From assembly GCA_038249055.1 (NCBI GenBank), contig JBBRWS010000008.1, forward strand, positions 1 through 58,853: a DNA stretch of 58,853 nucleotides, given 5' to 3'. The DNA comes from Minisyncoccia bacterium. GTDB taxonomy: Bacteria; Patescibacteriota; Minisyncoccia; Phycocordibacterales; UBA9973. Below, piece after piece: positions 21,075 through 39,218 of the stretch (the first letter of the stretch is position 1; every line of letters begins with the position of its first letter). The notes beneath the pieces are model-generated. The model was not told the DNA's origin. It ran no database searches and saw nothing but the letters and a program-made list of their open reading frames with translations. Made by a program: the position numbers and the translations under genes.

Positions 21075-21560
21075 CTATAAACAAGTAAAATCAGGATCTT
21101 GATATCTAGAATACCAAACTGCTGCACCAGTTGATTCGTTTCTATAACCCAGAGCAAGACCAGATCCTGTATAACAATAATACTTATAAGCATAAGTTCC
21201 AGCTGGAGACATATCTCCAGTCATGTCATTTATAGGATCAATTGGGACTTGCTTTGTTATTCCTCCGGTCACCAAAAAATTCATAAATGTTGGAGATCCT
21301 AATGGTTGAGAACTATAATCCCAACCACCAGAATTTGCATCACTATATACACTTGTTCTAGGAATACCTCCATATTCAAGATGGTACATAACAAGCATTT
21401 TATAAATATTTTGTATATCTGCTTTTCTTACAGCATCTCGAGCTTTTACTCTAGCGCTGTTTAGAGACGCCAAAACAATAGTGGAAAGAGTGCCTACAAT
21501 TGCAATAACAACCAATAGTTCAATTAAAGTAAAACCTTTTTGATATTTGAACTTAGACAT
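21075..21560 (-). CDS. type IV pilin/GspG-like protein (start moved to MSKFKY)
   Basis: KG|FTLIELLVV, ARDAVRKAD, PIDP. Confidence 0.92.
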   Translation of the reverse strand: MSKFKYQKGFTLIELLVVIAIVGTLSTIVLASLNSARVKARDAVRKADIQNIYKMLVMYHLEYGGIPRTSVYSDANSGGWDYSSQPLGSPTFMNFLVTGGITKQVPIDPINDMTGDMSPAGTYAYKYYCYTGSGLALGYRNESTGAAVWYSRYQDPDFTCL

Positions 21561-21570
21561 AATTAAATAA

Positions 21571-22062
21571 TTAATAATTTTTAGCATCAGGGGTATAAAC
21601 AGAGAAAGATTTTGTTGTACCATTTGAATATTCGAGAGACTCAGGAACATTCCCCTCTACTGTAGTAAATATTACAAAATTATAATTATTATCATCATTT
21701 GATCTATAAACATAACAACCATTAGTTCCAATAGGTTTAGGGTCAAGAGGTAGGATACTAATATAATTTGGTGCAAGATTTGGAATATAACCTGTTGCTC
21801 CTGTGGTACCATAAGAACCATAATAAGAGCAATTTCCTCTCCAGCCTGGGGAATAAGGATACTTACCATTATCACTATAATATGTTTCTAAAGCTTTCTG
21901 TACCTCTCTTAAATCTGAAAGTCTTTTTGTATCTCGTGCTTTAGCTCTTGCAGAATTTAAAGAAGCTAAAACTACAGAAGAAAGTATTCCGATAATAGAG
22001 ATGACAACAAGAAGTTCTATGAGGGTGAAACCTTTTTGAGAATTATTTTTCACTAAAATCAT
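21571..22062 (-). CDS. type IV pilin/GspG-like protein (start at MILVKNN or the following GTG)
   Basis: KG|FTLIELLVV, ARDTKRLSDL, YYSDNGKYP, LPLDP. Confidence 0.92.
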   Translation of the reverse strand: MILVKNNSQKGFTLIELLVVISIIGILSSVVLASLNSARAKARDTKRLSDLREVQKALETYYSDNGKYPYSPGWRGNCSYYGSYGTTGATGYIPNLAPNYISILPLDPKPIGTNGCYVYRSNDDNNYNFVIFTTVEGNVPESLEYSNGTTKSFSVYTPDAKNY

Positions 22063-22104
22063 TATACATGATAATAAATAATTTTTAAAATTAGAGATAT
22101 GGAT

Positions 22105-22276
22105 TTGGGAACAGGGACCGCGAGTACGCCTTTCGGCTACCACGTAGCCAGGTACTTTTCGCTCTGGCTAATGCCAGAGAACGAAAAGTCTTTCGAATCC
22201 CTGACGCGACTGAAGCAGTTCAGTCGCTTTCCCAAGCAAATAAAAATAGCCCTTTAACAAGGGTTATTTTTATTTG
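22105..22276 (-). mobile_element. tRNA-Gln-associated antisense/scaffold element (cleanest copy)
   Basis: Hairpin, antisense acceptor, 25-nt hairpin (22204-22228), antisense T-arm (22192-22203), 74-nt scaffold A, 13-nt direct repeat of tRNA 3' end (22105-22117). Confidence 0.8.
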
Positions 22277-22347
22277 CTTGGGAACAGGGATTCGAACCCC
22301 AATTAACGGCTTCAAAGGCCGCTGTCCTACCATTAGACGATTCCCAA
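22277..22347 (-). tRNA. tRNA-Gln(TTG), no encoded CCA
   Basis: Acceptor TTGGGAA/TTCCCAA, anticodon loop CTTTGAA, T-loop TTCGAAT. Confidence 0.95.
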
Positions 22348-22464
22348 ATATATAAATACTTACGCTGACAAAAAAAGCCAAATATTTAAACTCCTATAGA
22401 ATACCTTAAAAATAGTTATTTTTCAACTATTCAACGCCTATATAAAATATGATACAATATACGC

Positions 22465-23487
22465 ATGCATATAAGTTCAACAGAAAAATATTTCTTGTTC
22501 ACATTATTATCAATAACGATTATATTAACACTTTTAATTCTTTATCCTTTTCTTGCTATGTTTATATTAGCAGCAGCTTTTGCTGTGGTACTTAATCCTA
22601 TCTATTTATGGATTAAAGTAAATATAGTTAAAAATATATCTTGGTTAGCATCTATTCTAACTGTAATCATTTTTCTTTTATTTTTATGTGTTCCGTTATT
22701 TTTTGTAGGTAAAGCTATCTTTATACAAACACAAAATATTTATTATAATATTGTAAACTCAGGAACTTCGGGTCATTTTATAGCAACAATAGATGCATCT
22801 ATAACAAAATTTTTACCAAGTGGTTTTAATTTTGATATACATTCTAAAATAATAGAATTGGTCTCCTCATTATCGAGCAATCTAGCCAAATTTTTCTCAT
22901 CAACTCTAAACTCTATTATCATGTTCATCTTAATGATATTTACTCTTTTTTATCTACTAAAAGATGGAGAACAATGGGAAAAAGGCTTACTAAAAATTCT
23001 ACCCCTTCGAGAAGAAAATACAAATGAAATTCTTAAAAATCTTAAAACATCTATTAATAAAATATTTAAGGGATCATTTATAATAGCTATTTCACAGGGA
23101 ATTCTTGCTTGGTTTGGTTTTATGATTTTCGGTGTTCCTAATGCTGTTATTTGGGCTGTTGTTGCAGGTATTGCTTCATTTGTGCCAACAATAGGAACTT
23201 CAGTAGTTTCTGTCCCTGCAATTTTATTTTTATTCTTTACAGGAATGCAAATGCAGGCTCTTGGCCTTCTTATTTGGTCCATACTTCTTATTGGAATGAT
23301 AGATAATCTATTGAGCCCATATATAATTTCAAAAGATACTGAAATACCATCTTTGTTTATTCTTTTTTCAATTCTAGGAGCGTTGTCATTAGTAGGACCA
23401 ATTGGAATTCTTATTGGTCCCCTAGTATTAAGTTTACTATATAGTCTTATTTCTATTTACAAAAAAGAAATTCAAGAATCAAACTGA
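22465..23487 (+). CDS. AI-2E family transporter
   Basis: LFYLLKDG, QGILA, FVPTIG, IDNLLSP, GILIGP pattern. Confidence 0.9.
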   Translation: MHISSTEKYFLFTLLSITIILTLLILYPFLAMFILAAAFAVVLNPIYLWIKVNIVKNISWLASILTVIIFLLFLCVPLFFVGKAIFIQTQNIYYNIVNSGTSGHFIATIDASITKFLPSGFNFDIHSKIIELVSSLSSNLAKFFSSTLNSIIMFILMIFTLFYLLKDGEQWEKGLLKILPLREENTNEILKNLKTSINKIFKGSFIIAISQGILAWFGFMIFGVPNAVIWAVVAGIASFVPTIGTSVVSVPAILFLFFTGMQMQALGLLIWSILLIGMIDNLLSPYIISKDTEIPSLFILFSILGALSLVGPIGILIGPLVLSLLYSLISIYKKEIQESN

Positions 23488-24732
23488 CATCCCAGCTATA
23501 TATCCAGTAGTCCAACAAATCTGTAGTGAATAACCTCCGGAGTTGCGATTCAAATGCAATAAATCTCCAGTAACATATAAATTCTCATATAATTTTGAAC
23601 GCATAGTTTTCATGTCTATTTCAGAAAGTGAAACTCCGCCGTTAACTACAACTGCTCTGTCGTACCCCATTAATCCAACTACAGTAATTGGTAGTGCTTT
23701 CAATAACTTTACTATCATACGTCTTTCTTCTTTTGTGATACTATGCACTTTTGTTTCAAGGTCCACAAAATTGATTACTTTTTGGAGAGCTTGAGCCATC
23801 CCCTCTGGAACGAATTCTTTTATAATCGTTTTTAATATTTTATTTTTATTTAAATCAAAGACTTTTATTATTCTATCTTCAAGTAAACTATTATTTGTAT
23901 CTGGATATAAATCTATAAATGCAGTTACCTCACCTTTTTCTAAAAGTATATTAATTTTATTCGCACTATTTAAAATAAGAGGTCCAGAAAGACCAAAATG
24001 TGTAAATAAAATTTTACCTTTTTTTGAAAATTGATTTTTACCATTGAGACAAAAAGTTATCTTCATAAAAGAAAGCGTGGTCCCTGCTAAACTTTTAACC
24101 CAATCTTCTTTTATTTCAATAGGGACAATGTCTGGGGTCGGTTCTGTTATTGTATGCCCTAGTACCTCTAAAAATTTATAACCATCACCAGTTGAACCTG
24201 TTTCAGGATGTGACATTCCTCCTGTAGCGAGTATGAAAGATTTTGCATAAAATTGACCTTGATTGGTATTAATATTTATTATTTTATTATCATTATGAAT
24301 AATATTTGAAACAATACAATTTGTCCTTATTTCTACCTTATTTTTTATTAATTCTTTATATAAAACATTAAAAACATCAACTGCTTTTTCTGATGCGGGA
24401 AAAACACGATTACGCGCTTGCACAACAAGTGGTAATCCTCGTGTTTCAAAATATGTGAATGTATCTTTAACTCCAAAAATAGAAAAAGGTGAATATAAAT
24501 GTGGAGCTCCTTCTCCATAAACTTTAAGTAATTTATGAATATCTGGCTCATTATTTGTAATATTACACCTACCTCCTCCAGTAATTTTTAGTTTTTCACC
24601 AAGAGCCGTATTTTTATCTACAATTAAGACAGACAAAGAACGAGATGCGGATACAGCTGCAGCCATCATCCCAGAGGCACCACCCCCCATAATAATAACA
24701 TCCCAAATTTTATTTTTATTATTTTTCAGCAT
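23479..24732 (-). CDS. HI0933/BaiN-like flavoprotein
   Basis: GGGASG, GEKLKITGGGRCNITN, LFTHFGLSGP, GGYSLQ. Confidence 0.92.
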   Translation of the reverse strand: MLKNNKNKIWDVIIMGGGASGMMAAAVSASRSLSVLIVDKNTALGEKLKITGGGRCNITNNEPDIHKLLKVYGEGAPHLYSPFSIFGVKDTFTYFETRGLPLVVQARNRVFPASEKAVDVFNVLYKELIKNKVEIRTNCIVSNIIHNDNKIININTNQGQFYAKSFILATGGMSHPETGSTGDGYKFLEVLGHTITEPTPDIVPIEIKEDWVKSLAGTTLSFMKITFCLNGKNQFSKKGKILFTHFGLSGPLILNSANKINILLEKGEVTAFIDLYPDTNNSLLEDRIIKVFDLNKNKILKTIIKEFVPEGMAQALQKVINFVDLETKVHSITKEERRMIVKLLKALPITVVGLMGYDRAVVVNGGVSLSEIDMKTMRSKLYENLYVTGDLLHLNRNSGGYSLQICWTTGYIAGMSV

Positions 24733-25774
24733 TTAGAATTTTCAACAAAGCAAGCTCAAGTGGCAGTTCGTTTATGATAGAAGTGCGAAGCGATTGATAA
24801 GCATTAAGTAAAATCAAGAGTGTGGATGAAGATATATGTTCTGGTTTGGTGTAAACTAATTTTTCTAAATAAATCATGTCTCGTTCACTTATACTATTTT
24901 CAATAGATTTCTTTGCACTTGGTACATAACGAAGCATAAGTGCATATCGAAGCTTATATAAAATCATTTTTATATAAACACCCATATCAATATTTTGTTT
25001 AACGGCTTTTTCTATAGAAATAAAACCTTTTTCAATATCATTTGTTGCAATTGAATCTAAAAAACTATCAACAAGCGTGGTGTTAGGTGCTCCTGTAATT
25101 TCTTCAATTTCTTTTATATTTATTATTTTATCTCTAGAAAAAGAAATAACTTTTTGAAGAGTTCCTAATGCATCTCTAAACGCACCATCTGCAAGTAAAG
25201 CTATCAACTCTGCTCCACCTTCTTCTAATTTATAACCTTCTTTTTTTGCAACACTTGTAACAACTTGAGCGAGTATTACATCATTTGGTTTTTTAAAAAC
25301 AAAACTCTGACAACGAGAAATAATTGTTTCAGGAATTTTTTCTAGTTCTGTGGTAGCAAGAATAAATATTACATGTTCAGGTGGTTCTTCAATTGTTTTA
25401 AGAAGTGCATTCCAAGCTTCTTTTGTAAACATATGAACTTCATCTAAAATATAAATCTTATATTTTGAATCAAAAGGTAAAGTTCGAACACTCTCATTTA
25501 TATCTCTTACATCATCTATCCCCCGATTACTAGCTGCATCCATTTCATTAATGTCGTTTACAGAAGTTCCCAATTCACGGGCAATTATACGCGCAATAGT
25601 AGTTTTGCCTGTTCCACGAGGACCACATAAAAGGTAAGCATGAGCCACCTTACCAGCAGCCAAACTACCTGAAATAGCCTTTACTATATGGTCTTGACCC
25701 ATAACTTCTTCAAAACTTTCTGGTCTATATTTTCTATATAATGCGATATTTGAGTCTTTCTTAGATTCTTTCAT
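24719..25774 (-). CDS. dnaX: DNA polymerase III gamma/tau, short form
   Basis: LYRKYRP, GPRGTGKT, DAASNRG, DEVHM, LKTIEEPP, SRC. Confidence 0.95.
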   Translation of the reverse strand: MKESKKDSNIALYRKYRPESFEEVMGQDHIVKAISGSLAAGKVAHAYLLCGPRGTGKTTIARIIARELGTSVNDINEMDAASNRGIDDVRDINESVRTLPFDSKYKIYILDEVHMFTKEAWNALLKTIEEPPEHVIFILATTELEKIPETIISRCQSFVFKKPNDVILAQVVTSVAKKEGYKLEEGGAELIALLADGAFRDALGTLQKVISFSRDKIINIKEIEEITGAPNTTLVDSFLDSIATNDIEKGFISIEKAVKQNIDMGVYIKMILYKLRYALMLRYVPSAKKSIENSISERDMIYLEKLVYTKPEHISSSTLLILLNAYQSLRTSIINELPLELALLKILNAEK

Positions 25775-25791
25775 ATTTGTAGTATAACAAA

Positions 25792-26757
25792 TTAATGATT
25801 ATTGAGAAATTTTTTAACTATAGCTTCTACTTCAGAAGCTATTTTTGTCTCCATTAATTCTACCCGTAATTCTTTCGCTCCATCAAAGCCATTTACATAG
25901 GCCTTATAATGTTTCTTCATAACAGCAAAGTTTTTATGTCCACCTAAAATTTTTTCAAATAATTTTGTATGCTCTATCATGACTTTTAATTTTTCTTTTA
26001 TAGTTGGAACTTTCCCTGAAAATAACCAAGGGTTTCCAAAAATTCCTCTGCCTACCATTATCCCATCACAGCCAGTCTCGAAGGCAAGGAGCCTCCCCTG
26101 TTCCAAATCTTTTACATCACCATTCCCTATTATCTTTGTCTTTACTCCCATTTTATTTCTTATATCTACCACTTCTTTAACATGCTCCCATCTTGCAGGA
26201 ACTAGTGACATTTCTTTACGAGTACGAGCATGAATAGTTAGTGCGTCTATATCTTGAGATAACAAAAATGGAATCCATTCACTAATTTGATTTTTATTGT
26301 AACCAATACGAGTCTTTACTGAAACAGAAATATTTTTCTTTTTTGAATCTTTAATTCCATCTTTAACCGCCTCTATTATCTCACCTGCTTTCTTCATATC
26401 CTTCATCATTGCTGCTCCTGCTCCTTGTTTCTCTACTGATCTATCTGGACAACCCATATTAATATCTATTCCATCAAAACCAAGAGACGCTACATATTTT
26501 GATGCCTCTCTCATTTTAATGGGGTTTGAAGAAAATAATTGAGCAATGATTGGTTTTTCTTTTTTTGAAAATATTAAATTATTCTTTAGTACCTCTCGTC
26601 CAGGACTTGAAAGTCCATCGGCAGAAACAAACTCTGTCCACATTACGTCTGGTTTCCCATATTTAGAGATAACACTCCTAAAAGAAGCATCAGTGACATC
26701 AGCCATTGGCGCTAAACAAAAAAACGGTTTTGGTAATTTATCCCAGAATTTTTTCAT
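25792..26757 (-). CDS. tRNA-dihydrouridine synthase
   Basis: LAPMADVTD, DINMGCP, VSVKTRIG, IHART, GNGD, GRG..GNPW. Confidence 0.93.
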   Translation of the reverse strand: MKKFWDKLPKPFFCLAPMADVTDASFRSVISKYGKPDVMWTEFVSADGLSSPGREVLKNNLIFSKKEKPIIAQLFSSNPIKMREASKYVASLGFDGIDINMGCPDRSVEKQGAGAAMMKDMKKAGEIIEAVKDGIKDSKKKNISVSVKTRIGYNKNQISEWIPFLLSQDIDALTIHARTRKEMSLVPARWEHVKEVVDIRNKMGVKTKIIGNGDVKDLEQGRLLAFETGCDGIMVGRGIFGNPWLFSGKVPTIKEKLKVMIEHTKLFEKILGGHKNFAVMKKHYKAYVNGFDGAKELRVELMETKIASEVEAIVKKFLNNH

Positions 26758-26768
26758 TTGTTTTTTAG

Positions 26769-26854
26769 GGAATTTAGAATGTACTCAGACGAATTGGTCT
26801 GGCCCCTCATCCTCCCTCGTCCGAGGACCTGAGTATGAATATTTTCTAAATTCC
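26769..26854. repeat. multibranch intergenic stem-loop with GC-rich core
   Basis: GGAATTTAGAA/TTCTAAATTCC outer stem, TACTCAG/CTGAGTA inner stem, CCTCG-TC-CGAGG hairpin. Confidence 0.6.
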
Positions 26855-26874
26855 TTTATAACTAGAACTCATTA

Positions 26875-27741
26875 TTATTGAAACTTATATAAGACCTTGT
26901 TATTAAAGCGAAGATCTATATATAAGAGCGTATTATACTTTGAATTAATCTCTTCGGCAAATTCTCTCTTTCTCATAGAAAGAGCAAGATTGTCATATAT
27001 TGTTTCTAGTACATTATCATTCTTAAAAATTATTTTTGGGATAGAGTCATTTACTGCATGGCTCAAATATAATGAATTTATTCCATCTTGCCCTAATACT
27101 ATGTAAATAGGGTTTAAACCAAGAGAATTAATTTTATCCATAAACCGGGTTAATTCATGAAAACGATTAACATCAATCATTTGTTTGCCGAGAGGACTAA
27201 TAATATTTCCTTCTATTGTTCCATAATACTTAAAATATACATTTCCAGAAAAATATGGGGCCTCATCAAAAATAAATCCATCGTCATTTATAAAATAACA
27301 ATTTTCTCCTACTTGCTCTATATCTTGAGGAATATTTGGACCACAATAAAGAGAAGATCCTACTCTTTCAATTATTTCAATATGTAAAGTTTTTAAATTA
27401 TCACGATAGATAGAAAGTGATTCTATCCTTGGGAAATTTAAAATTAAATTATTATAAATTTGCTTATGTGGATAAATAAAACTATTTGCTCTAGAAAAAA
27501 GATGAAAATATTTACCTGAAATATCTTTGTAAATTTCTTCTTCAATATCTACTTTATCTATAATATGAGTACCAGTTATAACAACCTTATCAATAATTAT
27601 ATTTTTATTACCTGAAAAATAGGAAGTAGCCCCAATAATAGAAATGAGTAAAATAAAAAAAAGAATAGATAACCGAAACAAGCGAATACGGCGATTATGC
27701 CTTATTTCTATAATTCGTGGAGATGTTGGTATATCTCTCAT
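26875..27741 (-). CDS. FtsQ/DivIB-like cell division protein
   Basis: Basic N-terminus plus TM, POTRA-like region, C-terminal YIDLRFNNKVLYK. Confidence 0.75.
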   Translation of the reverse strand: MRDIPTSPRIIEIRHNRRIRLFRLSILFFILLISIIGATSYFSGNKNIIIDKVVITGTHIIDKVDIEEEIYKDISGKYFHLFSRANSFIYPHKQIYNNLILNFPRIESLSIYRDNLKTLHIEIIERVGSSLYCGPNIPQDIEQVGENCYFINDDGFIFDEAPYFSGNVYFKYYGTIEGNIISPLGKQMIDVNRFHELTRFMDKINSLGLNPIYIVLGQDGINSLYLSHAVNDSIPKIIFKNDNVLETIYDNLALSMRKREFAEEINSKYNTLLYIDLRFNNKVLYKFQ

Positions 27742-27748
27742 ATTAAAT

Positions 27749-29011
27749 CTATGAAATAATATCTTTACCTAAATATTTTTTCAAAACTTCTGGTATTTTA
27801 ATTGTACCATCTGCTTGTTGAAAATTTTCTACCAAAGACACTAATATGCGAGGGGTTGGAATAGCGGTACAATTAAGAGAATGAGCATATCTTGCTTTAC
27901 CTTCTTCATCACGATACCGAATATTTAAACGGCGAGTTTGAAAATCATGGAAATAAGACGCGGATGAAATCTCGCGATATTTGCTTTCCTTTGGAACCCA
28001 AAGTTCTACATCATATTTTTTAACTTGACCCATTCCTAAATCCCCTCCACAATTAACAACAGTATGATACGGAATACCGAGTGATTCTATAAATTCTTCT
28101 GTATTACGATTTACTTCTTCATGATATTTAACACTCTCAGTATGAGAAGCAGCACAAATAACTACTTGTTCTAATTTATAAAATTCGTGAACTCTTATTA
28201 AGCCTTTTACATCTTTACTGTGACTTCCCGCTTCGCGTCTATAACAAGGAGAAAAACCTAAATATTTTTTGGGTAATTCATCTGCTTTCAAAATTTCATC
28301 AGAATGAAATCCCATAAGGGGAACTTCCGCAGTACCAGCAAGAAAATCACCATCTTGAGTTTTATATAAATCATCTTCACCTTGTGGTAAATAACCTGTC
28401 CCCATAAAAGTTTCTCTTCGGATTATGACAGGCGGTAACACTGGAATAAATCCTTTATCGGAAAAGAAATTAAGAGCATAATTCCAGATGGCCATAGAAA
28501 GACGAGCTCCGTCACCTATAAGAAAATATCCTCTAAAGCCATGAACTTTTGTTCCTCTGTCAAAATCTACCATTTTTAGATTGGTCATTAGTTCAATATG
28601 ATCTTTTGCTTCAAACGAAAATGTTGGTTTTTCTCCCCAAGATTTAACTTCTTGATTGTCGGCATCACTCTCACCTTCAGGAACTGAAATATCTGGAACA
28701 TTTGGAACTTGGAGCATAAAAGACTGCCAAACTAGCATAGTTGCACGTAATTCTTCTTCTTTATCTTTTAATTCATCTTTAACGAGACGCATTTCCTCAA
28801 TCAATTGTCCTCGTGCTTCTTGGCTTAATGTTCCACCCATAGAAACACTCACTTTATTTTGCTCTCCACGCAAAAATTCAACACGAGAAAGAAGTTCTAA
28901 TCTTTTTTCATCAATAGAAAGAAGATTATCAATATCTACTTCAATATGTTTTTTCTTTGCACCCTCTTTAATTATATCTTTATTCTCGCGAATGAATTTA
29001 ATATCTAACAT
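27749..29011 (-). CDS. serS: seryl-tRNA synthetase
   Basis: MLDIKFIR, GTAEVP, YRREAG, RVHEF, EISSAS, ENFQQADG. Confidence 0.97.
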   Translation of the reverse strand: MLDIKFIRENKDIIKEGAKKKHIEVDIDNLLSIDEKRLELLSRVEFLRGEQNKVSVSMGGTLSQEARGQLIEEMRLVKDELKDKEEELRATMLVWQSFMLQVPNVPDISVPEGESDADNQEVKSWGEKPTFSFEAKDHIELMTNLKMVDFDRGTKVHGFRGYFLIGDGARLSMAIWNYALNFFSDKGFIPVLPPVIIRRETFMGTGYLPQGEDDLYKTQDGDFLAGTAEVPLMGFHSDEILKADELPKKYLGFSPCYRREAGSHSKDVKGLIRVHEFYKLEQVVICAASHTESVKYHEEVNRNTEEFIESLGIPYHTVVNCGGDLGMGQVKKYDVELWVPKESKYREISSASYFHDFQTRRLNIRYRDEEGKARYAHSLNCTAIPTPRILVSLVENFQQADGTIKIPEVLKKYLGKDIIS

Positions 29012-29113
29012 CCCAGTACTAAAATCTTATGACTAATTTTTCTCAATTACCCGACTGCCCTACTATCAATATATTTTATCTTAATTTAACTTAATCAAAA
29101 ATTTAGTACGGGA
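29011..29113. mobile_element. MITE-like element at serS start, TCCC...GGGA ends
   Basis: TCCCAGTACTAAA ... TTTAGTACGGGA; CA on both flanks (TG on the coding strand). Confidence 0.6.
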
Positions 29114-29163
29114 CAAGTAATATCTACAGTATATAAAAAAATATTATAATACACAAACAAATC

Positions 29164-29355
29164 TATATAAAATACAAAAATAGTCTTATCAGAGGGTCTT
29201 GGGAGGCTGTCGAGCCGAGCATGCTTAAAAGAAAACTGCTTTTCTTTTAAGGCGATGCCGTAGGCACATGTCGTTGTCGTAGACAGACATGAGTGGACAT
29301 TTTTATCCTTTAAATATCCGTGCCCTCTGAGAAGACTATTCTTATATTTTATATA
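29164..29355. mobile_element. MITE-like stem-loop element (ATAGTCTTMTCARAGGG ends), copy 2
   Basis: 33-bp terminal IR with 3 mismatches; internal GGAGGCTGTCGAGC identical to 1487-1500; AA-CTGC-TT hairpin at 29225-29250. Confidence 0.7.
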
Positions 29356-29385
29356 TTAAAACATAGTGTATAATAATTAAATATT

Positions 29386-30249
29386 ATGGAGGACATTTTT
29401 AAATTAAAACCAGAACAATTTCCTAATCCCCTACTTGAAATCCCCCAACCTCCAAAAACTCTTTACATAAGAGGAAAATTACCTGGCCCAGAATTAATAT
29501 ACTTAGCAGTTGTTGGTTCCCGTAAATACACTTCTTACGGCAGAGATATTTGTGAAAAGTTGATTCGTGGATTAAAAGATTATCCTATTGTTATTGTTTC
29601 AGGATTAGCCCTCGGAATAGATACTATTGCACATAAAACAGCGATGGAAGTAGGACTTACAACTATTTCTTTTCCTGGTTCAGGTTTAGACAACAGTGTT
29701 TTGTACCCAAGAACAAACATTCGACTTGCACAAGAAATAATAAACAATGGGGGTTGTTTAATTTCAGAATTCGAACCGAGCTTTATTGCCACACTTTATT
29801 CTTTTCCACAAAGAAATAGATTAATGGCTGGAATATCAAAAGCAGTACTAATAATAGAAGCTGAAGAAAAATCTGGTACGCTTATTACTGCCCGTATGGC
29901 TCTCGACTATAATCGTGATGTCCTGGCTGTTCCCGGCTCTGCATTTTCAGCAAATTCAAATGGAACCAACTGGCTAATAAAACAAGGAGCTACTCCTATA
30001 ACTTCGAGTGGAGATATTTTAGAAGCTCTAGGCTTTGAAATAGAAAAACTAGAGATAAGTGACGAAGAAAAATATGCTGACTGTTCTAAAGAAGAATTAA
30101 AAATAATTGCACTACTCCATGAGCCAATGGAGCGTGATGATTTAGTTCGCGAATCAGGCATGAAAATAGCGGAGGCGAATGCATTGCTTTCAATAATGGA
30201 ATTAAAAGATTTTATTAAAGAAGAATTAGGAGAGATTAGAAAAAAATAA
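29386..30249 (+). CDS. dprA: DNA-processing protein DprA
   Basis: AVVGSR, VSGLALGID, FPQRNRL, SGTLITA, LIKQGA. Confidence 0.96.
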   Translation: MEDIFKLKPEQFPNPLLEIPQPPKTLYIRGKLPGPELIYLAVVGSRKYTSYGRDICEKLIRGLKDYPIVIVSGLALGIDTIAHKTAMEVGLTTISFPGSGLDNSVLYPRTNIRLAQEIINNGGCLISEFEPSFIATLYSFPQRNRLMAGISKAVLIIEAEEKSGTLITARMALDYNRDVLAVPGSAFSANSNGTNWLIKQGATPITSSGDILEALGFEIEKLEISDEEKYADCSKEELKIIALLHEPMERDDLVRESGMKIAEANALLSIMELKDFIKEELGEIRKK

Positions 30250-30290
30250 AAAACATATTCGTACGCTATAGCGTACGAATATGTTTTTTA
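30247..30290. terminator. bidirectional terminator
   Basis: AAAAAACATATTCGTACGC-TATA-GCGTACGAATATGTTTTTT. Confidence 0.85.
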
Positions 30291-30310
30291 GATAATAAAA
30301 TAAATAAAAA

Positions 30311-31618
30311 TTACCTTTCAACCACGGGAAATACTTCCCCAGTATCTGGAATCATAAAATATTGATAACTTATTAATTGAGTCTTAATTAGATCGTCTGT
30401 GTTACCAACAGAGTGAGTATCATCCTCTGTAAGGAAAATTATTCTATCACCGTTATCTCTTCTTGTATCTTTCGTAAAATATACAAAACTACAATTAGCT
30501 TCGATGCATTCTCTAATAGTACTATTGGTCATATGTCCTCTATCTATATTATATTTTTCTGTATAATCAAAAATTTCTCCTGTATCTGCAATTCTAAATG
30601 TCCCCTTAACAAATTTATCAACAACCTCTCCTCTAGCATTTATCATATTTACACTATCTACAATAGGACTTGGAATAGGACCATTAGGGTCATATTTATC
30701 AGAAATAGATTTATTTTCATTATTAACTGAATTATTTTTAACAGTACTTACCCCACAACAATATGAACATGTTACAGGACCTTGATCTTCTTCTATGTAA
30801 AAATTTCCATTTTCATCAATCTTTATTCTATTTGTTAAATCTATACCACCAGGAATACAAGAAGCTTCTTTATCTGTTTTACCTTTTGATTCGCAAAATT
30901 GTTTAGAATCAAAACACTGAGAACGATCTTTGTATTCTTGTGTTACTATTTTTTGGTAAAAACAACTATATCCATCTCTTGAATTACCAACAAGCGCCCC
31001 TTCCTTTCCACATTGAACCTTTGATATAATTTTAACTCCAAAAATCATAACTAAAGGTACTACAACGGTTATAAAAATAATTATAGATAATATTATTACT
31101 AATTTTTTATTATTTTTAATCCATAATTTAAATGAGGCTATTTTTCCAACTTTTTCTCCATTCTCTATATTTTGTGTTGCATTATCTAAATTTTCGGAAA
31201 TATTTATATTATTAATAATGAGTTTTTTTAAATGTTTGACAAAAGTTACCCAAATTATAATAGTAATAATCGATAAAACTATCCAAGGAATAAATGCGAG
31301 AATAGCGAAAAGAAGATTTGGAGTTAGTATTACTTGTAAAAACAAATAGGCAATAATATAAGCAAAAGAAATGTGGGTCCATTTAATTACATCTTGTTTA
31401 AAATTGTAAAGTTTATAAACAAATATTAAAGAAAGACAAATATCAACTAAATATAACCCCAGTCTTATAATATTTGCGGTAGGATTTGATAAAAGACCTG
31501 GAGTTAATAAAACATTAATGTTAATTAATCCTGAGACGAGAGACCAAAGAGTCCCTGTTATTCCCAATATAAATAAAACGAGAATTATCCAAACATAAAC
31601 ACTTTTTTTATTATTCAT
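30311..31618 (-). CDS. hypothetical multi-TM protein with Cys-rich extracellular domain (paralog A)
   Basis: 4+1 TM; CxDSKQFCE, CxYCCG, YDPNGP...IPDTGEVFP shared with the next gene. Confidence 0.75.
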   Translation of the reverse strand: MNNKKSVYVWIILVLFILGITGTLWSLVSGLININVLLTPGLLSNPTANIIRLGLYLVDICLSLIFVYKLYNFKQDVIKWTHISFAYIIAYLFLQVILTPNLLFAILAFIPWIVLSIITIIIWVTFVKHLKKLIINNINISENLDNATQNIENGEKVGKIASFKLWIKNNKKLVIILSIIIFITVVVPLVMIFGVKIISKVQCGKEGALVGNSRDGYSCFYQKIVTQEYKDRSQCFDSKQFCESKGKTDKEASCIPGGIDLTNRIKIDENGNFYIEEDQGPVTCSYCCGVSTVKNNSVNNENKSISDKYDPNGPIPSPIVDSVNMINARGEVVDKFVKGTFRIADTGEIFDYTEKYNIDRGHMTNSTIRECIEANCSFVYFTKDTRRDNGDRIIFLTEDDTHSVGNTDDLIKTQLISYQYFMIPDTGEVFPVVER

Positions 31619-31626
31619 ATATTTAA

Positions 31627-33171
31627 TTATCTATTTATTAATGGAAAAACTTCTCCTGTATCAGGAATTAAAGAATATTGATAGCTAACTAATTCAGCCT
31701 CTTCAATTTTTCCTGTAAAAAAAATACTGGAACTATCTTCAGAAGCTGATAAACTATTTTTACTCTCTGGGTTAAGAAAGATTACAACAACACCTATATT
31801 ATAATGAGGCTCATAACAATATTGTCCTCCACCCTTAACCCCCATACAAAGATCTTCAGAATAAGTTATAGTCTTATCTGACCCACCATTTTGAGAATAT
31901 AAAATAGTATAAGTTGCACCGTCAGACATATCATGAGGATTAGGATAAGATACAACTTTTTTACCTTTTGAATAAAACTCAACTTTTATAATTTTTCCAA
32001 TAGCTGGATTATCTGTGTCATTAAATCTAGCACCAGAACCATATTTTATATAAGTATCATCTACAAAATAAACTTTTTTACAATTTAATTTAACACAACT
32101 ATCAATCGCACTTTCATAATCTAAGCTAACCTTTTCTCTGTATTCAAATGTTTTATCTTCGCCTATTTTTTTAAACGTCCCATTTATCCATTTATCAACA
32201 ACCTCTCCTCTAGCATTTATCATATTTACACTATCTACAATAGGGCTTGGATAAGGGCCATTTGGATCATACTTAGAAGTATTCACTTCTTTAACTAATG
32301 GAACTATTTTATCTATATCCCCACAACAATAATTACAAGCAACAGGTCCGTCTTGTAAATATATAACTCCATCTTTTTTAACACTTATAACATTTTTTCC
32401 ATAAGCACTACTAAAACCACAAAAATCACTCTTGTCAGTTTTACCTTTTAGTTCACAAAATTGTTTAGAATCAATGCACTGAGCATTTTCCGGCTGATTA
32501 ATAAAATAATAAGAACAATAGTATCCACCATTACCATTACTAATAAGTTTTGCATTTCTACCGCATTCTATTCTTGCTTTTGTACTCATAAACAAAGTAG
32601 GACCAAAGATTAAAACAAGTATCACAGATATAATTATCAGAATTGTTTTATTATTTTTAACCCAAAACATAAAACTTGATTTTTCTTTTATTATTTCTTT
32701 ATTATTTTCTTGACTATTATCTAAAACAACTGAAGAATTTTCTAATTGAACTTTCCTTATTCCTTTTAAATGATGAGTAAAAGTAACCCAAATTAATGCA
32801 ATGACTACCATTAAAATTATCCATGGAGTAACTACAACTGGCAAAAACATTAGATAATTAAAAATCAAACCCAAAGAACTACTAAAAATAAAAAAATAGA
32901 AAAAAATATTAGTCCATTTGATAACATCATTCTTTAAATTATAAAGTTTATAAAAATATACAACTAGAATAAAAAGATTTACGAAATTAAAAATTACACT
33001 TAGAATAGAAACAACGGAAATTGTTAAAATGTGATGTTCTAAAAAGATATTAATGCTCATTAAACCTAAAATAACGGCAAAAATATAACTTATTATTCCC
33101 AATAATATTAAAGTTAAAATAATCCAAACATAAGAACTTTTTTTGTTAATAACTATTAACTGATTTTCCAT
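31627..33171 (-). CDS. hypothetical multi-TM protein with Cys-rich extracellular domain (paralog B)
   Basis: Same architecture as paralog A plus ~80 extra aa. Confidence 0.75.
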   Translation of the reverse strand: MENQLIVINKKSSYVWIILTLILLGIISYIFAVILGLMSINIFLEHHILTISVVSILSVIFNFVNLFILVVYFYKLYNLKNDVIKWTNIFFYFFIFSSSLGLIFNYLMFLPVVVTPWIILMVVIALIWVTFTHHLKGIRKVQLENSSVVLDNSQENNKEIIKEKSSFMFWVKNNKTILIIISVILVLIFGPTLFMSTKARIECGRNAKLISNGNGGYYCSYYFINQPENAQCIDSKQFCELKGKTDKSDFCGFSSAYGKNVISVKKDGVIYLQDGPVACNYCCGDIDKIVPLVKEVNTSKYDPNGPYPSPIVDSVNMINARGEVVDKWINGTFKKIGEDKTFEYREKVSLDYESAIDSCVKLNCKKVYFVDDTYIKYGSGARFNDTDNPAIGKIIKVEFYSKGKKVVSYPNPHDMSDGATYTILYSQNGGSDKTITYSEDLCMGVKGGGQYCYEPHYNIGVVVIFLNPESKNSLSASEDSSSIFFTGKIEEAELVSYQYSLIPDTGEVFPLINR

Positions 33172-33175
33172 ATAG

Positions 33176-33412
33176 TTATTTTTTAATTTTTATTAAAGAA
33201 AAAATTGCTATTAATGACCATACTACTTGTAGCGTAAATGCTGGCCAAGCACTCTGTTGAAAAACATTAACTCCGACAAAAATAGCACCGAATAAATTCA
33301 ATAATTGATATCTTCTGTCTGTTGCACTAATTTTATTATTAGAAACTAAAAAATAAGCTAATACTATTAAAAAAGTTCCAATCCAACCGATAGTTTGTGA
33401 AAATATTTCCAT
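33176..33412 (-). CDS. small 3-TM protein (CBU_0592-like)
   Basis: IGWIG..LIVLAY...YQLLNLFGA...AWP. Confidence 0.7.
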   Translation of the reverse strand: MEIFSQTIGWIGTFLIVLAYFLVSNNKISATDRRYQLLNLFGAIFVGVNVFQQSAWPAFTLQVVWSLIAIFSLIKIKK

Positions 33413-33560
33413 CTATTAATTGTATATTAGAATCAAATATTTATCAAAGAATTTGCAAAAAAATATGTTTTCGTGTAATACTGTGAATTAGGTTCTGGTA
33501 TCTAGTTTCTATTTTTTAAAAACCTAATCACTTGTCACTAGTTCCTAATCACTAATTTAT

Positions 33561-35792
33561 ATGAAACTTTTAATTGTTGAGTCCCCTTCAAAAGCAAAGA
33601 CAATAGAAAAATATTTAGACGGCGCATACACTGTGCGTGCTTCTGTTGGGCACATAAGAGATTTACCAAAATCAAATAAAGAGGCAATAGACATACCTGG
33701 TGGTTTTATACCTCGTTATGAAATATCAAAAGGTAAAGAAAAAGTAGTTTCTGAATTAAAATCTCTTTCTGAAAAAGCAACAGAAATAATGCTCGCAACT
33801 GACCCGGACCGTGAAGGAGAAGCTATCTCATGGCATTTAAAAGAATTACTTGATGAAGATAAAAAAGTTAAAGCTCCTATTAAAAGAGTAACTTTTTATG
33901 AAATTACAAAAGAAGCTGTACAAAATGCACTTCAAAACCCTCGTGACATAGACCAAGATCTTGTAAAAGCTCAAGAAGCCCGTCGTGTACTTGACCGTCT
34001 TGTAGGATATGATTTATCTGGAATCATTTGGAAAAAAGTACGATACGGCCTTTCTGCAGGAAGAGTTCAATCCCCCGCTCTTCGTATAATAATGGAACGC
34101 GAAAGAGAAATTCGTGCTTTTATTCCTGAACAATATTGGACACTAGAAGGAACTTGGGAAACAAATAAAAATAATAAAATAACTCTATCTTGTGTAGAGG
34201 AACCTAGAGATGAAAAAGTTGTAACTCAAATTCTTAAACTAGGCAATAAAGAAAAATGGTTTGTAAAAGATTTAAAAACAAGTGAACAAAAGAGGCAACC
34301 TCGTGCTCCCTTTACAACTTCCACTCTTCAGCAGACTGCTAGTACTAGACTTGGATTTTCTCCTTCACGTACTATGCAAGTGGCCCAGAAACTTTATGAA
34401 CAAGGTTTTATTACATATATGCGTACAGATAGTACAAATTTAAGTTTAGTTGCTCAAAATCAAATACTTGCCCTCGTAGAAAAAAAATATGGTAAGGAGT
34501 ATGTAGAAGCTCATGTATATAAAGCCAAATCTAAAAATGCACAGGAGGCACACGAAGCTATTCGTCCTACTCATATAGAACAAATAAATGCAGGTGCAAA
34601 TGAAGAACAAAATAAACTTTATAAATTAATTTGGGAAAGAGTTGTTTCTTCTCAAATGTCTGACGCAAAATTATTAAAAACAAAAATTACTGCAAATATT
34701 AAAGAGGATGCAATTCCTGATTTTACTGCCAATGGTTCACGTGTATTATTTCCTGGATGGCTTCTATGTGAGACGGGAGCACGGGGTGAAGATGTTGAAC
34801 TTCCAGAAGTAATAGTAGGTGAAGAATTAAAACTTATAGAACTAAACAGCACAGAGAAAGCGACTGAACCTCCTAATCGTTATACTGAAGCGGGATTAGT
34901 TAAAGAACTTGAAGCACGTGACATCGGACGCCCTTCTACATATGCATCTATCATGAAAACTATTGAAGATAGAGGCTACGTGAGAAAAGAAGGACGTACT
35001 TTATTCCCTACTGATACTGGAGATGTGGTATCATCTTTTCTTGAAAATAATTTTGGAGAATATATAAGTGATACTTTCACCGCAGAAATGGAAGACAAAT
35101 TAGATGATATTTCAAATGGCAAAAGAGATTATGTAAAAACTTTAAGTGATTTTTATATTCCATTTCAAAAAGACGTTAAAGAAAAAGATAAACTTGCAAA
35201 AGCAACAAACATGGGTGAGGCTCCACTTGATATATTATGTCCAAAATGCGGAGGAAGTATGATTGTTAAACTTTCACGTGGAGGAAAATTTTATTCTTGT
35301 TCTAATTATCCAGATTGTGACGGTGCAAAAACTATTGAAGGAGTTGAACTTGAAGGTCCAAAAGAAACTGGTGAAATGTGTCCTACTTGTGGAGAAAAGA
35401 AAGGAAAATCAGGTGGTGGAAAACTTGTGATTCGTGTTAGACGTGACGGTACAGGTACTTTTATTTCTTGCTCTCGCTATCCTAAATGTAAATTTATAAA
35501 ACAAGACGAAGAAGAAATGAAAAGAAAGATGACAGATATTACCTGTCCTACGTGTCAAAAAGGCAAAATGATGGAACGCAAAGGAAGATTTGGAATATTT
35601 TATTCATGTAGTAACTACCCAGACTGTAAAAATGCTATCAAAGCAAAACCAACTGGAAATATTTGTCCTATGTGTGACTCACTTATGATGGAAGGCACAA
35701 AAACTATTCCTGAACGTTGTTCAAATAAAATGTGTAAGAATCATAATCCGCACAAACTTGGAGAAAACATAAAGAACAATAAAAACATTTAG
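33561..35792 (+). CDS. topA: DNA topoisomerase I with C-terminal zinc ribbons
   Basis: IVESPSKAK, ATDPDREGE, SAGRVQS, ITYMRTD, IGRPSTYA, repeated CPxC ribbons. Confidence 0.98.
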   Translation: MKLLIVESPSKAKTIEKYLDGAYTVRASVGHIRDLPKSNKEAIDIPGGFIPRYEISKGKEKVVSELKSLSEKATEIMLATDPDREGEAISWHLKELLDEDKKVKAPIKRVTFYEITKEAVQNALQNPRDIDQDLVKAQEARRVLDRLVGYDLSGIIWKKVRYGLSAGRVQSPALRIIMEREREIRAFIPEQYWTLEGTWETNKNNKITLSCVEEPRDEKVVTQILKLGNKEKWFVKDLKTSEQKRQPRAPFTTSTLQQTASTRLGFSPSRTMQVAQKLYEQGFITYMRTDSTNLSLVAQNQILALVEKKYGKEYVEAHVYKAKSKNAQEAHEAIRPTHIEQINAGANEEQNKLYKLIWERVVSSQMSDAKLLKTKITANIKEDAIPDFTANGSRVLFPGWLLCETGARGEDVELPEVIVGEELKLIELNSTEKATEPPNRYTEAGLVKELEARDIGRPSTYASIMKTIEDRGYVRKEGRTLFPTDTGDVVSSFLENNFGEYISDTFTAEMEDKLDDISNGKRDYVKTLSDFYIPFQKDVKEKDKLAKATNMGEAPLDILCPKCGGSMIVKLSRGGKFYSCSNYPDCDGAKTIEGVELEGPKETGEMCPTCGEKKGKSGGGKLVIRVRRDGTGTFISCSRYPKCKFIKQDEEEMKRKMTDITCPTCQKGKMMERKGRFGIFYSCSNYPDCKNAIKAKPTGNICPMCDSLMMEGTKTIPERCSNKMCKNHNPHKLGENIKNNKNI

Positions 35793-35903
35793 CCTTCGCT
35801 AAATGTTTTAGTTTTTGTGAGACGGAGCGATGTTTTGCGAGCACGCAAAACCGCGAGTCAAGGTTATTAGTTTTTCGAGTGGCGACGAGAAAAAACTTGT
35901 AAC
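35784..35903 (+). mobile_element. topA-associated antisense/scaffold element (scaffold B)
   Basis: 25-nt hairpin 35784-35808; antisense TAGTTTTTGTG 35809-35819; AGACGGAG...GAGTC..GGT...CTTGTAAC related to 1483-1544. Confidence 0.7.
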
Positions 35904-35992
35904 CAAAAACTATTCCCGAAAGATGCAGCAACAAGATGTGTAAAAACCATAATCCGCACAAGCTTGGGGAAAATATAAAAAGTAATAAATAA
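35904..35992 (+). pseudogene. synonymously recoded duplicate of the last ~28 codons of topA
   Basis: Encodes KTIPERCSNKMCKNHNPHKLGENIKSNK* versus topA ...ENIKNNKNI*. Confidence 0.9.
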
Positions 35993-36013
35993 ATTTTTTC
36001 AAAGGTACAACTT

Positions 36014-36038
36014 TGATTGAGTACAATCACCTACTGGG
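36014..36038 (-). repeat. 25-bp GTAG-type REP-like unit, copy 3
   Basis: Plus strand TGATTG-AGTA-CAATCA-CCTACTGGG. Confidence 0.85.
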
Positions 36039-36142
36039 CCGAAGCCGGCTAGCCAGTGAGGTCAATTTGCTAATTGAAGGTTGGACCTCTAAAACATTTA
36101 CCTGTCGTTTCCAAAAAAATACCAATACGTTATAATAAAGAA

Positions 36143-37609: not shown

Positions 37610-37614
37610 AGTCT

Positions 37615-37660
37615 AATTAAAAAAATCACTTCGACTAAAGTCGAAGTGATTTTTTTAATT
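37615..37660. terminator. bidirectional terminator
   Basis: AAAAAAATCACTTCGAC-TAAA-GTCGAAGTGATTTTTTT. Confidence 0.85.
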
Positions 37661-38687
37661 AGATTGAGAAATTTTTGATGTTATATAAATCAATATCTTC
37701 CTCAGTTTTTGCTATTTCTTGTTTTGTTCTATCTTCAACAAGATGATCATCAATAAAAGTGTTTACATCTTCTGAAATATTTTGTTTAATCGTAACCGAA
37801 ACTTCAGGTTGTGATTCTTGACTAGCAGCAAATTTATCTAACATTGCATTTGGATTGCTACCTTCGACAGATTTAATTAAACCAAGAATAGTATGCAAGT
37901 CATCATTAGTAAAGAAATCAATCGTAATATAACCACCATTTTCTTTCTTTTCAATATGAACCCGAGTTCCAAGTGATTCTTGCAATTTTTCTTCCATTTC
38001 TGCAATCTCTGGATCAAGCATATACTCCTTTTTTCGAACACGATCAAAAGCTATTTTACGCGCGGCCTTTTCTGCGTCACGAACTGTCATCTTTTTAAAA
38101 ACTATTTCTTTAAATAGTACCATCTGTTCCTGAGGTCTGTCCGTAAGCATCAAAATAGGACGGGTGTGTCCTTCGCTTATTTTTCTTGCAGAGAGTGCAT
38201 CTAATATCTCTTGAGGTAAAGCAAGAAGTCTCATTGTGTTTGATACATATTCACGACTCTTTCCAACTTTCTTTCCTATCTGAGTGTGAGTAAATTTAAA
38301 TTCTTCTACAAGTCTCATAAAAGCTCGAGCACGTTCAACTGCATTTAAATCTTCACGTTGTAAGTTCTCAATTATAGCAAGCTCAAGCTTAGCCATACTA
38401 TCATCACCTACTCGAATAATAACTGGAATTTGTTCAAGCCCGGCTAACTTGGAAGCTCTTAATCTACGCTCCCCCGCAATAAGTTCATATTCTACTGCAA
38501 TACCACCATCTTCCTTCTGAATTTCTTCTCGTGATACTACAAGCGGCTGAAGAACACCATACTGACGAATAGAATCTGCTAAATCCCTCAAACGATCTTC
38601 ATCAAACTCACGGCGAGGTTGAAAAGGATTTGGTTTAACTTTTTCTATATCTACCCAAAAAATTGAATTACTATAAAGTTGAGACAT
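37659..38687 (-). CDS. parB: ParB/Spo0J partition protein
   Basis: PNPFQPR, GVLQP, IAGERRLRA, IENLQREDL, HTH. Confidence 0.95.
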   Translation of the reverse strand: MSQLYSNSIFWVDIEKVKPNPFQPRREFDEDRLRDLADSIRQYGVLQPLVVSREEIQKEDGGIAVEYELIAGERRLRASKLAGLEQIPVIIRVGDDSMAKLELAIIENLQREDLNAVERARAFMRLVEEFKFTHTQIGKKVGKSREYVSNTMRLLALPQEILDALSARKISEGHTRPILMLTDRPQEQMVLFKEIVFKKMTVRDAEKAARKIAFDRVRKKEYMLDPEIAEMEEKLQESLGTRVHIEKKENGGYITIDFFTNDDLHTILGLIKSVEGSNPNAMLDKFAASQESQPEVSVTIKQNISEDVNTFIDDHLVEDRTKQEIAKTEEDIDLYNIKNFSI

Positions 38688-39214: not shown

Positions 39215-39218
39215 ATTA

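Follow-up and report, generated by a model that had tools for sequence, protein, structure and literature searches.

About two thirds of the transfer RNA (tRNA) genes of a Minisyncoccia bacterium are followed by a non-coding module of about 130–190 nucleotides (nt), which carries an inverted and a direct copy of the 3′ end of the very gene it stands behind and, between the two, a core that folds as a four-way junction. The module is described here for the tRNA-Gln(UUG) locus on contig JBBRWS010000008.1 (58,853 nt, analyzed at full length and called the window hereafter), which is contig 8 of a genome of 975 kb (assembly GCA_038249055.1) with 31% G+C and 42 tRNA genes. It lies directly behind tRNA and transfer-messenger RNA (tmRNA) genes, and its parts are ordered as follows: the tRNA end, a bidirectional terminator, an antisense copy of the acceptor strand, a 9-base pair (bp) hairpin (hp), an antisense copy of T-stem and T-loop, the four-way-junction core (scaffold A), and a direct repeat of the tRNA end. 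With X denoting the 3′ segment of the tRNA (from T-loop to discriminator) and X′ its reverse complement, this order is X–terminator–X′–core–X, X′ being split by hp. We tentatively favor the reading that the module is a selfish, non-autonomous palindromic "micro-island", whose acting form is a folded single strand and whose match to its tRNA is maintained by replication and repair functions of the host.

At the tRNA-Gln locus (Table 1), no open reading frame (ORF) was present within the 171-nt module. The antisense-acceptor segment matches the tRNA at 8/8 positions, lengthens the terminator hairpin across the tRNA end, and is paired with that end in the minimum free energy (MFE) fold. The antisense T-stem equals the reverse complement of the 3′ strand of the T-stem, not the wobble-paired 5′ strand itself. 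The core given in a preliminary description of this DNA was recovered on the minus strand and is directly followed by the direct repeat, which is identical to the tRNA at 12/13 positions. A match of the covariance model introduced below spans 22109–22203, starting in the antisense T-stem. A promoter-like site of the next gene, detected in a promoter and terminator scan, lies at 22061–22089, ∼20–45 nt past the end of the repeat at 22105.

Table 1. Parts of the module at the tRNA-Gln locus and further copies of scaffold A in the window.
Feature	Position	Strand	Remarks
tRNA-Gln(UUG), host and target of the module; no encoded CCA	22277–22347	minus	Rfam tRNA 61.4 bits; ARAGORN 22276–22347
Bidirectional terminator (t): A-rich arm, G+C hairpin (22250–22263), T-rich arm; arms mutually complementary	22238–22275	minus	Terminator-like site in scan
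Antisense-acceptor, 9 nt	22229–22237	minus	Exact reverse complement of 22276–22284 (acceptor 3′ strand, discriminator and next base)
hp, 9-bp hairpin with CTGC loop, in every case between both antisense segments	22206–22227	minus
Antisense T-stem (22198–22203) and antisense T-loop (22192–22197)	22192–22203	minus	T-stem part supplies the 5′ strand of P0, the closing helix
Scaffold A core, 74 nt	22118–22191	minus	P1: 22182–22189 with 22154–22161; inner hairpin 22162–22179
Scaffold A P2, loop GTG	22144–22149 with 22135–22140	minus	Also picked up by scan
Scaffold A P3, loop TACT	22127–22129 with 22120–22122	minus	GG at 22118–22119
Direct repeat of the tRNA 3′ end, 13 nt (last T-loop base, T-stem 3′ strand, acceptor 3′ strand)	22105–22117	minus	3′ strand of P0
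Scaffold A copy, second unit after tRNA-Lys(CUU)	1573–1692	plus	64.3 bits; 25-nt REP-like insert in P2 loop; repeat retained for 8 nt only
Scaffold A copy, long-P1 variant, after tRNA-Tyr	38918–39022	plus	104.3 bits
Scaffold A copy after tRNA-Leu(UAG), REP-like insert in P2 loop	47522–47655	plus	74.3 bits

An antisense copy of the tRNA's own 3′ end (a match of at least 8 nt to the last 22 nt, within 420 nt downstream) was found for 29 of the 42 tRNA genes, one of these being a lone 8-mer that is probably due to chance; the chance expectation was estimated at ∼0.05 matches per tRNA. In control genomes, antisense-positive tRNAs numbered 0/16 (another order of the class) and 1/24 (another class). 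When the order was the same but the family different, the genome examined had 2/15, there with a different core. The tmRNA gene also carries a complete module at its 3′ end, consisting of terminator, antisense segments, hp and scaffold A (contig 2, 41455–41620, minus strand); a second tmRNA-linked copy was observed in another species (L115). At 16/16 informative positions, given by wobble pairs or mismatches in the tRNA's own stems (a count that leaves out three mis-parsed tRNAs: one Met, Leu-UAA and Ala), the antisense is the reverse complement of the 3′ strand and not the 5′ strand of the tRNA itself, which rules out that it is a copy of the tRNA's own 5′ half. Where CCA is encoded in the gene (Leu-CAA and Ser-GGA), its complement is present in the antisense; elsewhere, the palindrome extends into the A-rich flank. 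The antisense is therefore copied from the gene or its primary transcript and not from the mature tRNA or the 5′ half. An origin from mature tRNA, in the manner of a primer-binding site, was rejected because the CCA complement occurs only where CCA is gene-encoded, and a retroelement-derived repeat was rejected because the genome has no RVT_1 match and the antisense follows the flank of the gene rather than an added CCA.

The architecture is regular. The spacing from the start of the antisense-acceptor to that of the antisense T-stem is 33 nt in nearly all modules. In 20 modules, hp has 15 distinct sequences with 100% Watson–Crick pairs, several pair types at 7/9 positions, and loops of CTGC (12), CTAC (2) or CTTC (1); its G/C-closed 9-bp form was found only inside modules. 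Near-identical 12-bp hairpins with a CTTC or CTGC loop were seen outside modules, ∼110 nt upstream of two tRNA-Ser genes (contig 10, 47293; contig 2, 55119). The predicted bidirectional terminator has the same design (A run, G+C hairpin, T run) in 13 listed modules, but its sequence differs between them. Several departures from the standard arrangement were observed as well. An insert of ∼24 nt with a small hairpin and a T-loop-like word splits the antisense T-stem in several modules (contig 1, 24650–24690, 78990 and 95420; contig 2, 90340–90420; contig 6, 37340–37380). Behind tRNA-Phe(GAA) (contig 1, 25704–25880), the T-arm and acceptor end recur as two degenerate copies in tandem, which a 45-nt spacer accompanies; a terminator and an antisense-acceptor come next, and no core is present. 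An unrelated "type B" core, a long hairpin after a small three-way motif, occupies the same slot between antisense T-stem and repeat at 1464–1545 and 39040–39107 of the window, and further core types occur behind tRNA-Thr, tRNA-Lys(UUU) and tRNA-Ser(UGA), and in a genome of another family (G199).

Each copy of scaffold A folds as a four-way junction, in which the antisense T-stem and the repeat form P0, P1 carries an inner hairpin that varies, P2 is a stem of 6 bp closed by a 3-nt loop, and P3 has 3 bp around TACT or TAAT and is followed by GG. T-loop sequence stands at both borders of the core, the right-hand one being tRNA-specific; P3 resembles a 14-nt insertion into this right-hand copy, and a shorter variant without P3 exists. 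The preliminary description had proposed that the Gln and Lys copies are exactly colinear. This holds: the Lys core (1585–1683) minus its 25-nt insert is 74 nt long and aligns with the Gln core without gaps at 52/74 identical positions in a scripted alignment. Positions that differ are concentrated in P2, P3 and the inner hairpin of P1, where pairing is retained. The hairpins of 6 bp with a 3-nt loop and the longer first hairpins given there for Tyr and Leu were likewise present, the Leu loop additionally holding a 25-nt insert. The four loci to which that description was limited turned out to belong to a family with dozens of members per genome, found in one lineage only.

Conservation of the fold was quantified on 15 clean copies (A1). 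Of the alignment cells in stems, 88.5% were paired, compared with 67.5% after shuffling and 40–47% in slid controls; 21 of 29 pairs change on both sides, and none of 500 shuffles reached the observed value. From these copies a covariance model was built, and with it 98 matches (95 distinct rows, 86 sources) were aligned. In this alignment, which was fitted to the model and hence is biased toward it, 91.0% of the cells were paired (67.7% shuffled, 37–47% in slid controls), 28 of 29 pairs change on both sides, and again 0/500 shuffles attained the observed value. Non-significant covariation in a larger alignment had been named beforehand as what would speak against the fold; in the 98 matches, covariation is still strong.

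The preliminary description had attributed the compensatory changes, G-U pairs included, to selection on a single-stranded fold of either RNA or DNA. The compensatory fold is conserved and the changed stems still pair, but nothing in the pairs points to an RNA strand: among 1929 cells in P1–P3, G-U (34) was as frequent as A-C (35), and the opposite strand folds equally well. For tRNA plus module, the MFE of the tRNA strand was −124 kcal/mol (z −11.5); its complement reached −123.4 kcal/mol (z −13.9). As judged from these sequences, equal G-U and A-C would fit selection or templating at the level of DNA, and would equally fit young copies decaying neutrally. Furthermore, compensatory changes need not reflect two mutations selected one after the other, since both arms can be written in a single event of intrastrand template switching; hairpins are reported to arise and persist through template switching during DNA replication (PMC8794818). 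In the MFE fold of the tRNA strand, the antisense segments pair with the 3′ strand of the tRNA, and the 5′ strands of the tRNA pair with the distal repeat, which amounts to a strand exchange.

That the antisense could pair either with the real tRNA end or with the terminal repeat, as had also been suggested, is borne out in so far as it is complementary to both and the exchange appears in the MFE fold, but the acceptor half of the repeat is often decayed. Over 22 copies, the antisense matched at 245/286 positions and the repeat at 174/286 (sums that include one mis-parsed tRNA and two shifted matches). The repeat begins at the T-loop or the T-stem. Its whole 13 nt were intact (at least 12/13) in only 6/22 copies, the acceptor half being decayed in 16/22, and the T-stem part was 5/5 in 18/22. 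Because the acceptor half of the repeat is decayed while its T-stem half and the antisense are kept, the constant pairings are those of antisense-acceptor with the real tRNA end and of antisense T-stem with the repeat (P0); a full acceptor/T minihelix is not maintained. This bears on the notion that the module encodes a separate small RNA with tRNA-like ends, in which an acceptor/T minihelix with hp as third arm and scaffold A in place of the T-loop would be recognized by ribonuclease (RNase) P, RNase Z or the CCA-adding enzyme, and would have the cognate tRNA or its enzymes as targets or competitors. Such an RNA would account for the position of hp between the acceptor and T-stem complements, like a tRNA body, for the module at the tmRNA gene and for the conserved junction sequences, and AT-rich, putative −10-like words stand ahead of the antisense segment. 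We consider it unlikely, since the acceptor half needed for the minihelix is so seldom intact, a terminator lies between the tRNA promoter and the module and no conserved promoter emerged, G-U pairs are not in excess, no Rfam family was matched, and copies with inserts in their loops persist.

Matches to the covariance model in this genome numbered 37 at E ≤ 1 and 27 at E < 1e−3, 15 of the latter being the seeds. All 24 congeneric genomes contained matches (1–12 each), as did 9 of 16 other genera of the order; in an even sample of the remaining phylum, 0/150 genomes did (E ≤ 1e−5, stricter filters). From a pattern scan with one genome per species, 80 of 119 stretches were tested with the model. 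Matches were found in 43 of the 80, and all 43 are titled as Patescibacteria-type (Nomurabacteria, Paceibacterota, Kaiserbacteria, Woesebacteria, Minisyncoccia and "Saccharibacteria" among the titles) or carry no taxon name, whereas 0/37 tested loci with titles of other phyla matched. Among the strongest 41 of the 43 matches, 30 have a tRNA or tmRNA gene on the same strand at most 400 nt upstream, usually 51–80 nt, one more has a tRNA 2.9 kb upstream, and 10 have no same-strand tRNA in the stretch examined. Of the 31 tRNA- or tmRNA-linked matches, 26 begin with the exact complement of the T-stem of that gene. In viral contigs, none of 45 pattern hits was confirmed by the model. The family is thus confined to one lineage of the candidate phyla radiation and is apparently undescribed: no description of such modules was found in a search of the full-text literature, Rfam 15 at gathering thresholds gave only tRNAs and small subunit ribosomal RNA in the window (the tRNA model matching real tRNAs only), and Rfam in E-value mode gave only sub-threshold, hairpin-like matches at 22040–22400.

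Within this lineage, the modules turn over and decay. Their number varies between 1 and 27 per genome within the genus, and among 25 assessable tRNA-Gln(UUG) loci of the genus, 14 have the full module, one has a partial module (terminator and antisense-acceptor only), and 10 are empty. Antisense and repeat track each species' own tRNA-Gln variant, and the scaffold subtype differs between near relatives even when their tRNA-Gln is 97% identical. Tandem, partial and degenerate units are common, and inserts resembling repetitive extragenic palindromic (REP) sequences occur in P2 and P3 loops. The REP-like unit is 25 nt long and consists of a 7-bp hairpin followed by the complement of GTAG; it was seen in the window at 1633–1657, 47592–47616 and 47678–47705, and on other contigs. 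Within modules, the opposite strand reads "..AC" (TTAC, CTAC, GTAC or CGAC) just ahead of each unit. Another variant has a different hairpin and the same tail. At the start of the window, the 5′ end of a 16S ribosomal RNA gene (1–338, minus strand) runs off the contig, ∼1 kb from tRNA-Lys.

Such turnover has to be weighed against the idea that the module is a cis-acting RNA device kept by the host, such as a fail-safe terminator, an insulator or a processing platform. In a read-through transcript, the antisense and the 3′ half of the tRNA would pair perfectly over more than 40 bp, and RNase III would be likely to cut this duplex; the repeat would pair with the freed 5′ strands of the tRNA, and the next gene would be shielded from read-through. 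The bidirectional terminator that is always part of the module, the strand exchange of the MFE fold, the regular architecture with its 33-nt spacing, the presence of the family in every congener, and the tight intergenic space with the next gene's promoter-like site so close behind the repeat all agree with this explanation. Nevertheless, we regard it as rather unlikely, given the lack of a G-U excess, the swings in copy number among congeners and the empty tRNA-Gln loci, the decayed and tandem copies and the loop inserts, and a four-way-junction core that would be superfluous for such a function. The same swings in copy number, the empty orthologous sites, the decay of that half of the repeat which is not under selection, the loop inserts, the occurrence in a single order and the failure to find an associated enzyme instead point to a selfish element.

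The last point rests on a survey of recombinases and transposases. No match to RVT_1, IS110-type or TnpB was found in this genome. Its single tyrosine recombinase passes the XerA model (235.8 versus a cut-off of 220) and fails the integron-integrase model (123.5 bits versus 265), so the module was not regarded as an integron attC site. A Y1 (HUH) transposase-like gene of 220 amino acids (contig 12, 13524–14186; L002, 1273–1935, minus strand) scored 28.4 bits with Pfam Y1_Tnp and 20.8 with the model for REP-associated tyrosine transposases (RAYT; cut-off 80); it probably is the partner of the REP-like units. Y1-type genes occur in 32/41 related genomes. In the 16 other genera, Y1 and module coincide in five, four have the module only, four Y1 only, and three neither; for resolvases, the corresponding figures are three, six, five and two. 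Reverse transcriptase was present in 3/9 module-bearing and 1/7 module-free genera outside the genus, and tyrosine recombinases are mostly one per genome and Xer-like. Thus, none of the Y1, resolvase, RVT_1 and phage-integrase families tracks the module family across the 41 genomes, and modules are present in genomes without matches to Y1, resolvase or reverse transcriptase (G028, G029 and G035, the latter two with an Xer-like gene only). Small reverse transcriptases of ∼330–360 amino acids were seen in 16/40 related genomes, though not in this one, and one genome has a second tyrosine recombinase at a distance of 1.2 kb from two copies of scaffold A (G015, contig 21, 21591–22115).

Three large serine recombinases are encoded in the genome, compared with 27 copies of the module, and serine-recombinase islands lie directly 3′ of tRNA-His, tRNA-Glu(CUC) and tRNA-Asn (contig 10, 18000–36550; contig 1, 78800–118050; contig 3, 91840–93570). 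Orphan modules with His and Glu antisense were found 18, 22 and 39 kb from their tRNA and mark the old flanks; because they lie 18–39 kb downstream, it appears that each island entered between a tRNA and the module that formerly adjoined it. Genes resembling heavy-metal ATPases are present in the Glu island. The cargo between tRNA and module measures 540 nt in another family (L038) and 18–40 kb in the islands here; in L137, the 2.9-kb insert between tRNA-Glu and module had no recognizable recombinase by its ORF listing, the ORFs themselves not having been searched against families.

Could the modules be scars or arm regions of integrase-borne islands, mostly deleted since, at the 3′ ends of tRNA genes? 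Regeneration of the target and a displaced fragment of it mark islands in tRNA and tmRNA genes, according to the Islander report (PMC4383910), and the repeat indeed spans the T-loop to the tRNA end, tmRNA included, as it does in such islands; besides, three islands of this kind are at hand, and orphan His and Glu modules stand at the far ends of two of them. This explanation is nonetheless quite improbable. Compensatory conservation of the core throughout the order would not be expected from scars; 27 copies face three recombinases; 6/9 module-bearing genera outside the genus have no resolvase match, and a single Xer-like tyrosine recombinase is the rule among the genomes; antisense segments are no feature of attachment sites; where there is an island, the complete module lies outside it, at the old tRNA flank; and none of the 45 viral-contig hits was real.

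We likewise give little credence to a guide for a trans-acting recombinase, in which the antisense, by pairing with the displaced strand of the tRNA gene, would steer insertion to that site, as in nucleic-acid-guided mobile elements. It is true that each copy has ∼20 nt complementary to its own target, that a conserved scaffold adjoins this stretch, and that the cargo between tRNA and module differs widely in size. But there is no candidate protein (no IS110-type, TnpB or reverse transcriptase gene, and no association with Y1 or resolvase), and each guide equals its present neighbor, so retargeting would still need an explanation. A mimic of dif or Xer was set aside by argument, since the arms differ between tRNAs.

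Since the family is not tracked by any recombinase and its arms are in every case those of the local gene, we infer copy choice or recombination by host replication and repair. The order X–terminator–X′–core–X is what results when a unit terminator–X′–core–X is recombined into the tRNA 3′ segment X. As in islands of tRNA and tmRNA genes, the insert restores the tRNA end and leaves a displaced fragment, and here it also supplies a terminator. The acting form of the selfish micro-island would be a folded single strand, more likely of DNA than of RNA. One antisense segment would extend the terminator hairpin over the acceptor strand of the tRNA, while the other would close the four-way junction with the T-stem copy. 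Copying and matching to the tRNA would proceed by strand switching or recombination around the T-loop, using host functions and no enzyme of its own, and the arms would stay perfect through intrastrand template switching. As side effects, the tRNA would gain a strong bidirectional terminator, and read-through RNA would have two competing folds. In a more specific version, which we consider doubtful, template switching across the terminator hairpin and the core would write the end of the tRNA gene into the antisense arm and back into the repeat, so that the core could settle behind any tRNA or tmRNA gene and stay matched without a recombinase; the palindrome might then also serve as a back-up for correcting the 3′ end of a single-copy tRNA gene.

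Several observations weigh against a selfish element spread in this way. Cores that are ∼93% alike stand behind different tRNAs, and their terminators are unrelated; a simple unit that moves together with its terminator therefore does not fit, and gene conversion of the core or target-templated rewriting must be assumed. The orientation of the core equals that of the tRNA in all 27 copies here, although a symmetric DNA hairpin process might flip it, and unpaired junction and loop sequences are conserved across core families. Conserved junctions, fixed orientation and the tRNA-like placement of hp argue for a more specific recognition of the fold: hp stands where the tRNA body would leave an acceptor/T helix, and together with the conserved junctions it is easier to understand as the mark of a binding partner or an RNA function than by copy choice alone. 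Equal numbers of G-U and A-C would also arise if young copies decayed neutrally from masters selected as RNA, and the occurrence in all 24 congeners could mean that the module is useful to the host. Finally, neither a circular form, nor an excision joint, nor a pair of close strains with empty and filled site was seen, the contigs of four DNA runs (21500–39500), which stop in or beside the module and tRNA, being unusable for this and no near-identical genome being available. In a run resembling the source, the Logan contigs break at tRNA/module loci, and these repeats probably fragment assemblies.

Compared with known systems, the module shares features with islands, with REP sequences, bacterial interspersed mosaic elements (BIME) and miniature inverted-repeat transposable elements (MITE), and with folded recombination sites, and it fails a defining feature of each. 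Islands in tRNA and tmRNA genes, such as those cataloged in Islander, have in common with it the targeting of the 3′ part of the gene, the regenerated end with a displaced direct repeat (the hallmark of islands, which is present here), tandem arrays and a patchy occurrence between species; the module differs in being only about 130–190 nt long, in carrying no integrase or any other gene, and in having antisense copies of the target and a conserved four-way core. Like REP/BIME with RAYT and like MITEs, it is short, non-coding, rich in hairpins, intergenic, present in dozens per genome, mosaic or tandem, and expanded in particular lineages. Unlike them, its arms are inverted and direct copies of the upstream tRNA, and there is no fixed terminal repeat. 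A MITE was rejected because the arms differ per tRNA and no transposase-bearing parent element was found, and REP/RAYT was rejected because scaffold A lacks a GTAG-type hairpin and, among the 16 other genera, Y1 presence does not go along with that of the module; the REP units here are a separate family inserting into module loops, and the GTAG-type hairpin holds for these 25-nt inserts, not for scaffold A.

Integron attC and CTX-phage attP sites act as folded single strands whose constant core sequences are read by IntI or XerCD. They resemble the module in having two inverted arms around a variable loop and a structure that is conserved over sequence; the layout site–body–inverted arm–loop–direct arm is that of a gene-less cassette, and the strict Watson–Crick pairing is as for a mimic of duplex DNA. 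They differ in that the module's arms vary with the tRNA and the genome has no integron integrase. tRNA-like structures and minihelices are matched by intact copies, whose antisense and repeat can form a helix of acceptor/T-stem sequence, but the acceptor half is mostly decayed and a junction of 75–100 nt replaces the T-loop. Hairpins made by template switching (PMC8794818) likewise have perfect stems and apparent compensation without separate selection on each arm, which is consistent with G-U equal to A-C and with arms that copy adjacent sequence; why loops and junctions are conserved, why the orientation is fixed and why only tRNA ends are affected is not explained by template switching alone. 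One feature of the module is not described for known small palindromic or integrative repeats: both of its arms derive from the 3′ end of the target tRNA, one as an inverted and one as a direct copy.

In the organisms concerned, genomes are at most 1 Mb in size and tRNA genes single-copy, yet up to two thirds of these genes bear a structured appendage in which ∼20 nt are antisense to their own tRNA. Should the module be selfish, arms templated by the target would be a new route to site specificity, and the family would caution that perfect "compensatory" covariation can arise at the level of DNA. If it is expressed, the candidate phyla radiation would hold a large, unexplored set of anti-tRNA or tRNA-like RNAs. 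Either way, the module probably explains why assemblies of these genomes break at tRNA genes, provides an annotation model for some 100–200 nt of unexplained sequence per tRNA locus and, as a mark of the old tRNA flank, delimits integrated islands.

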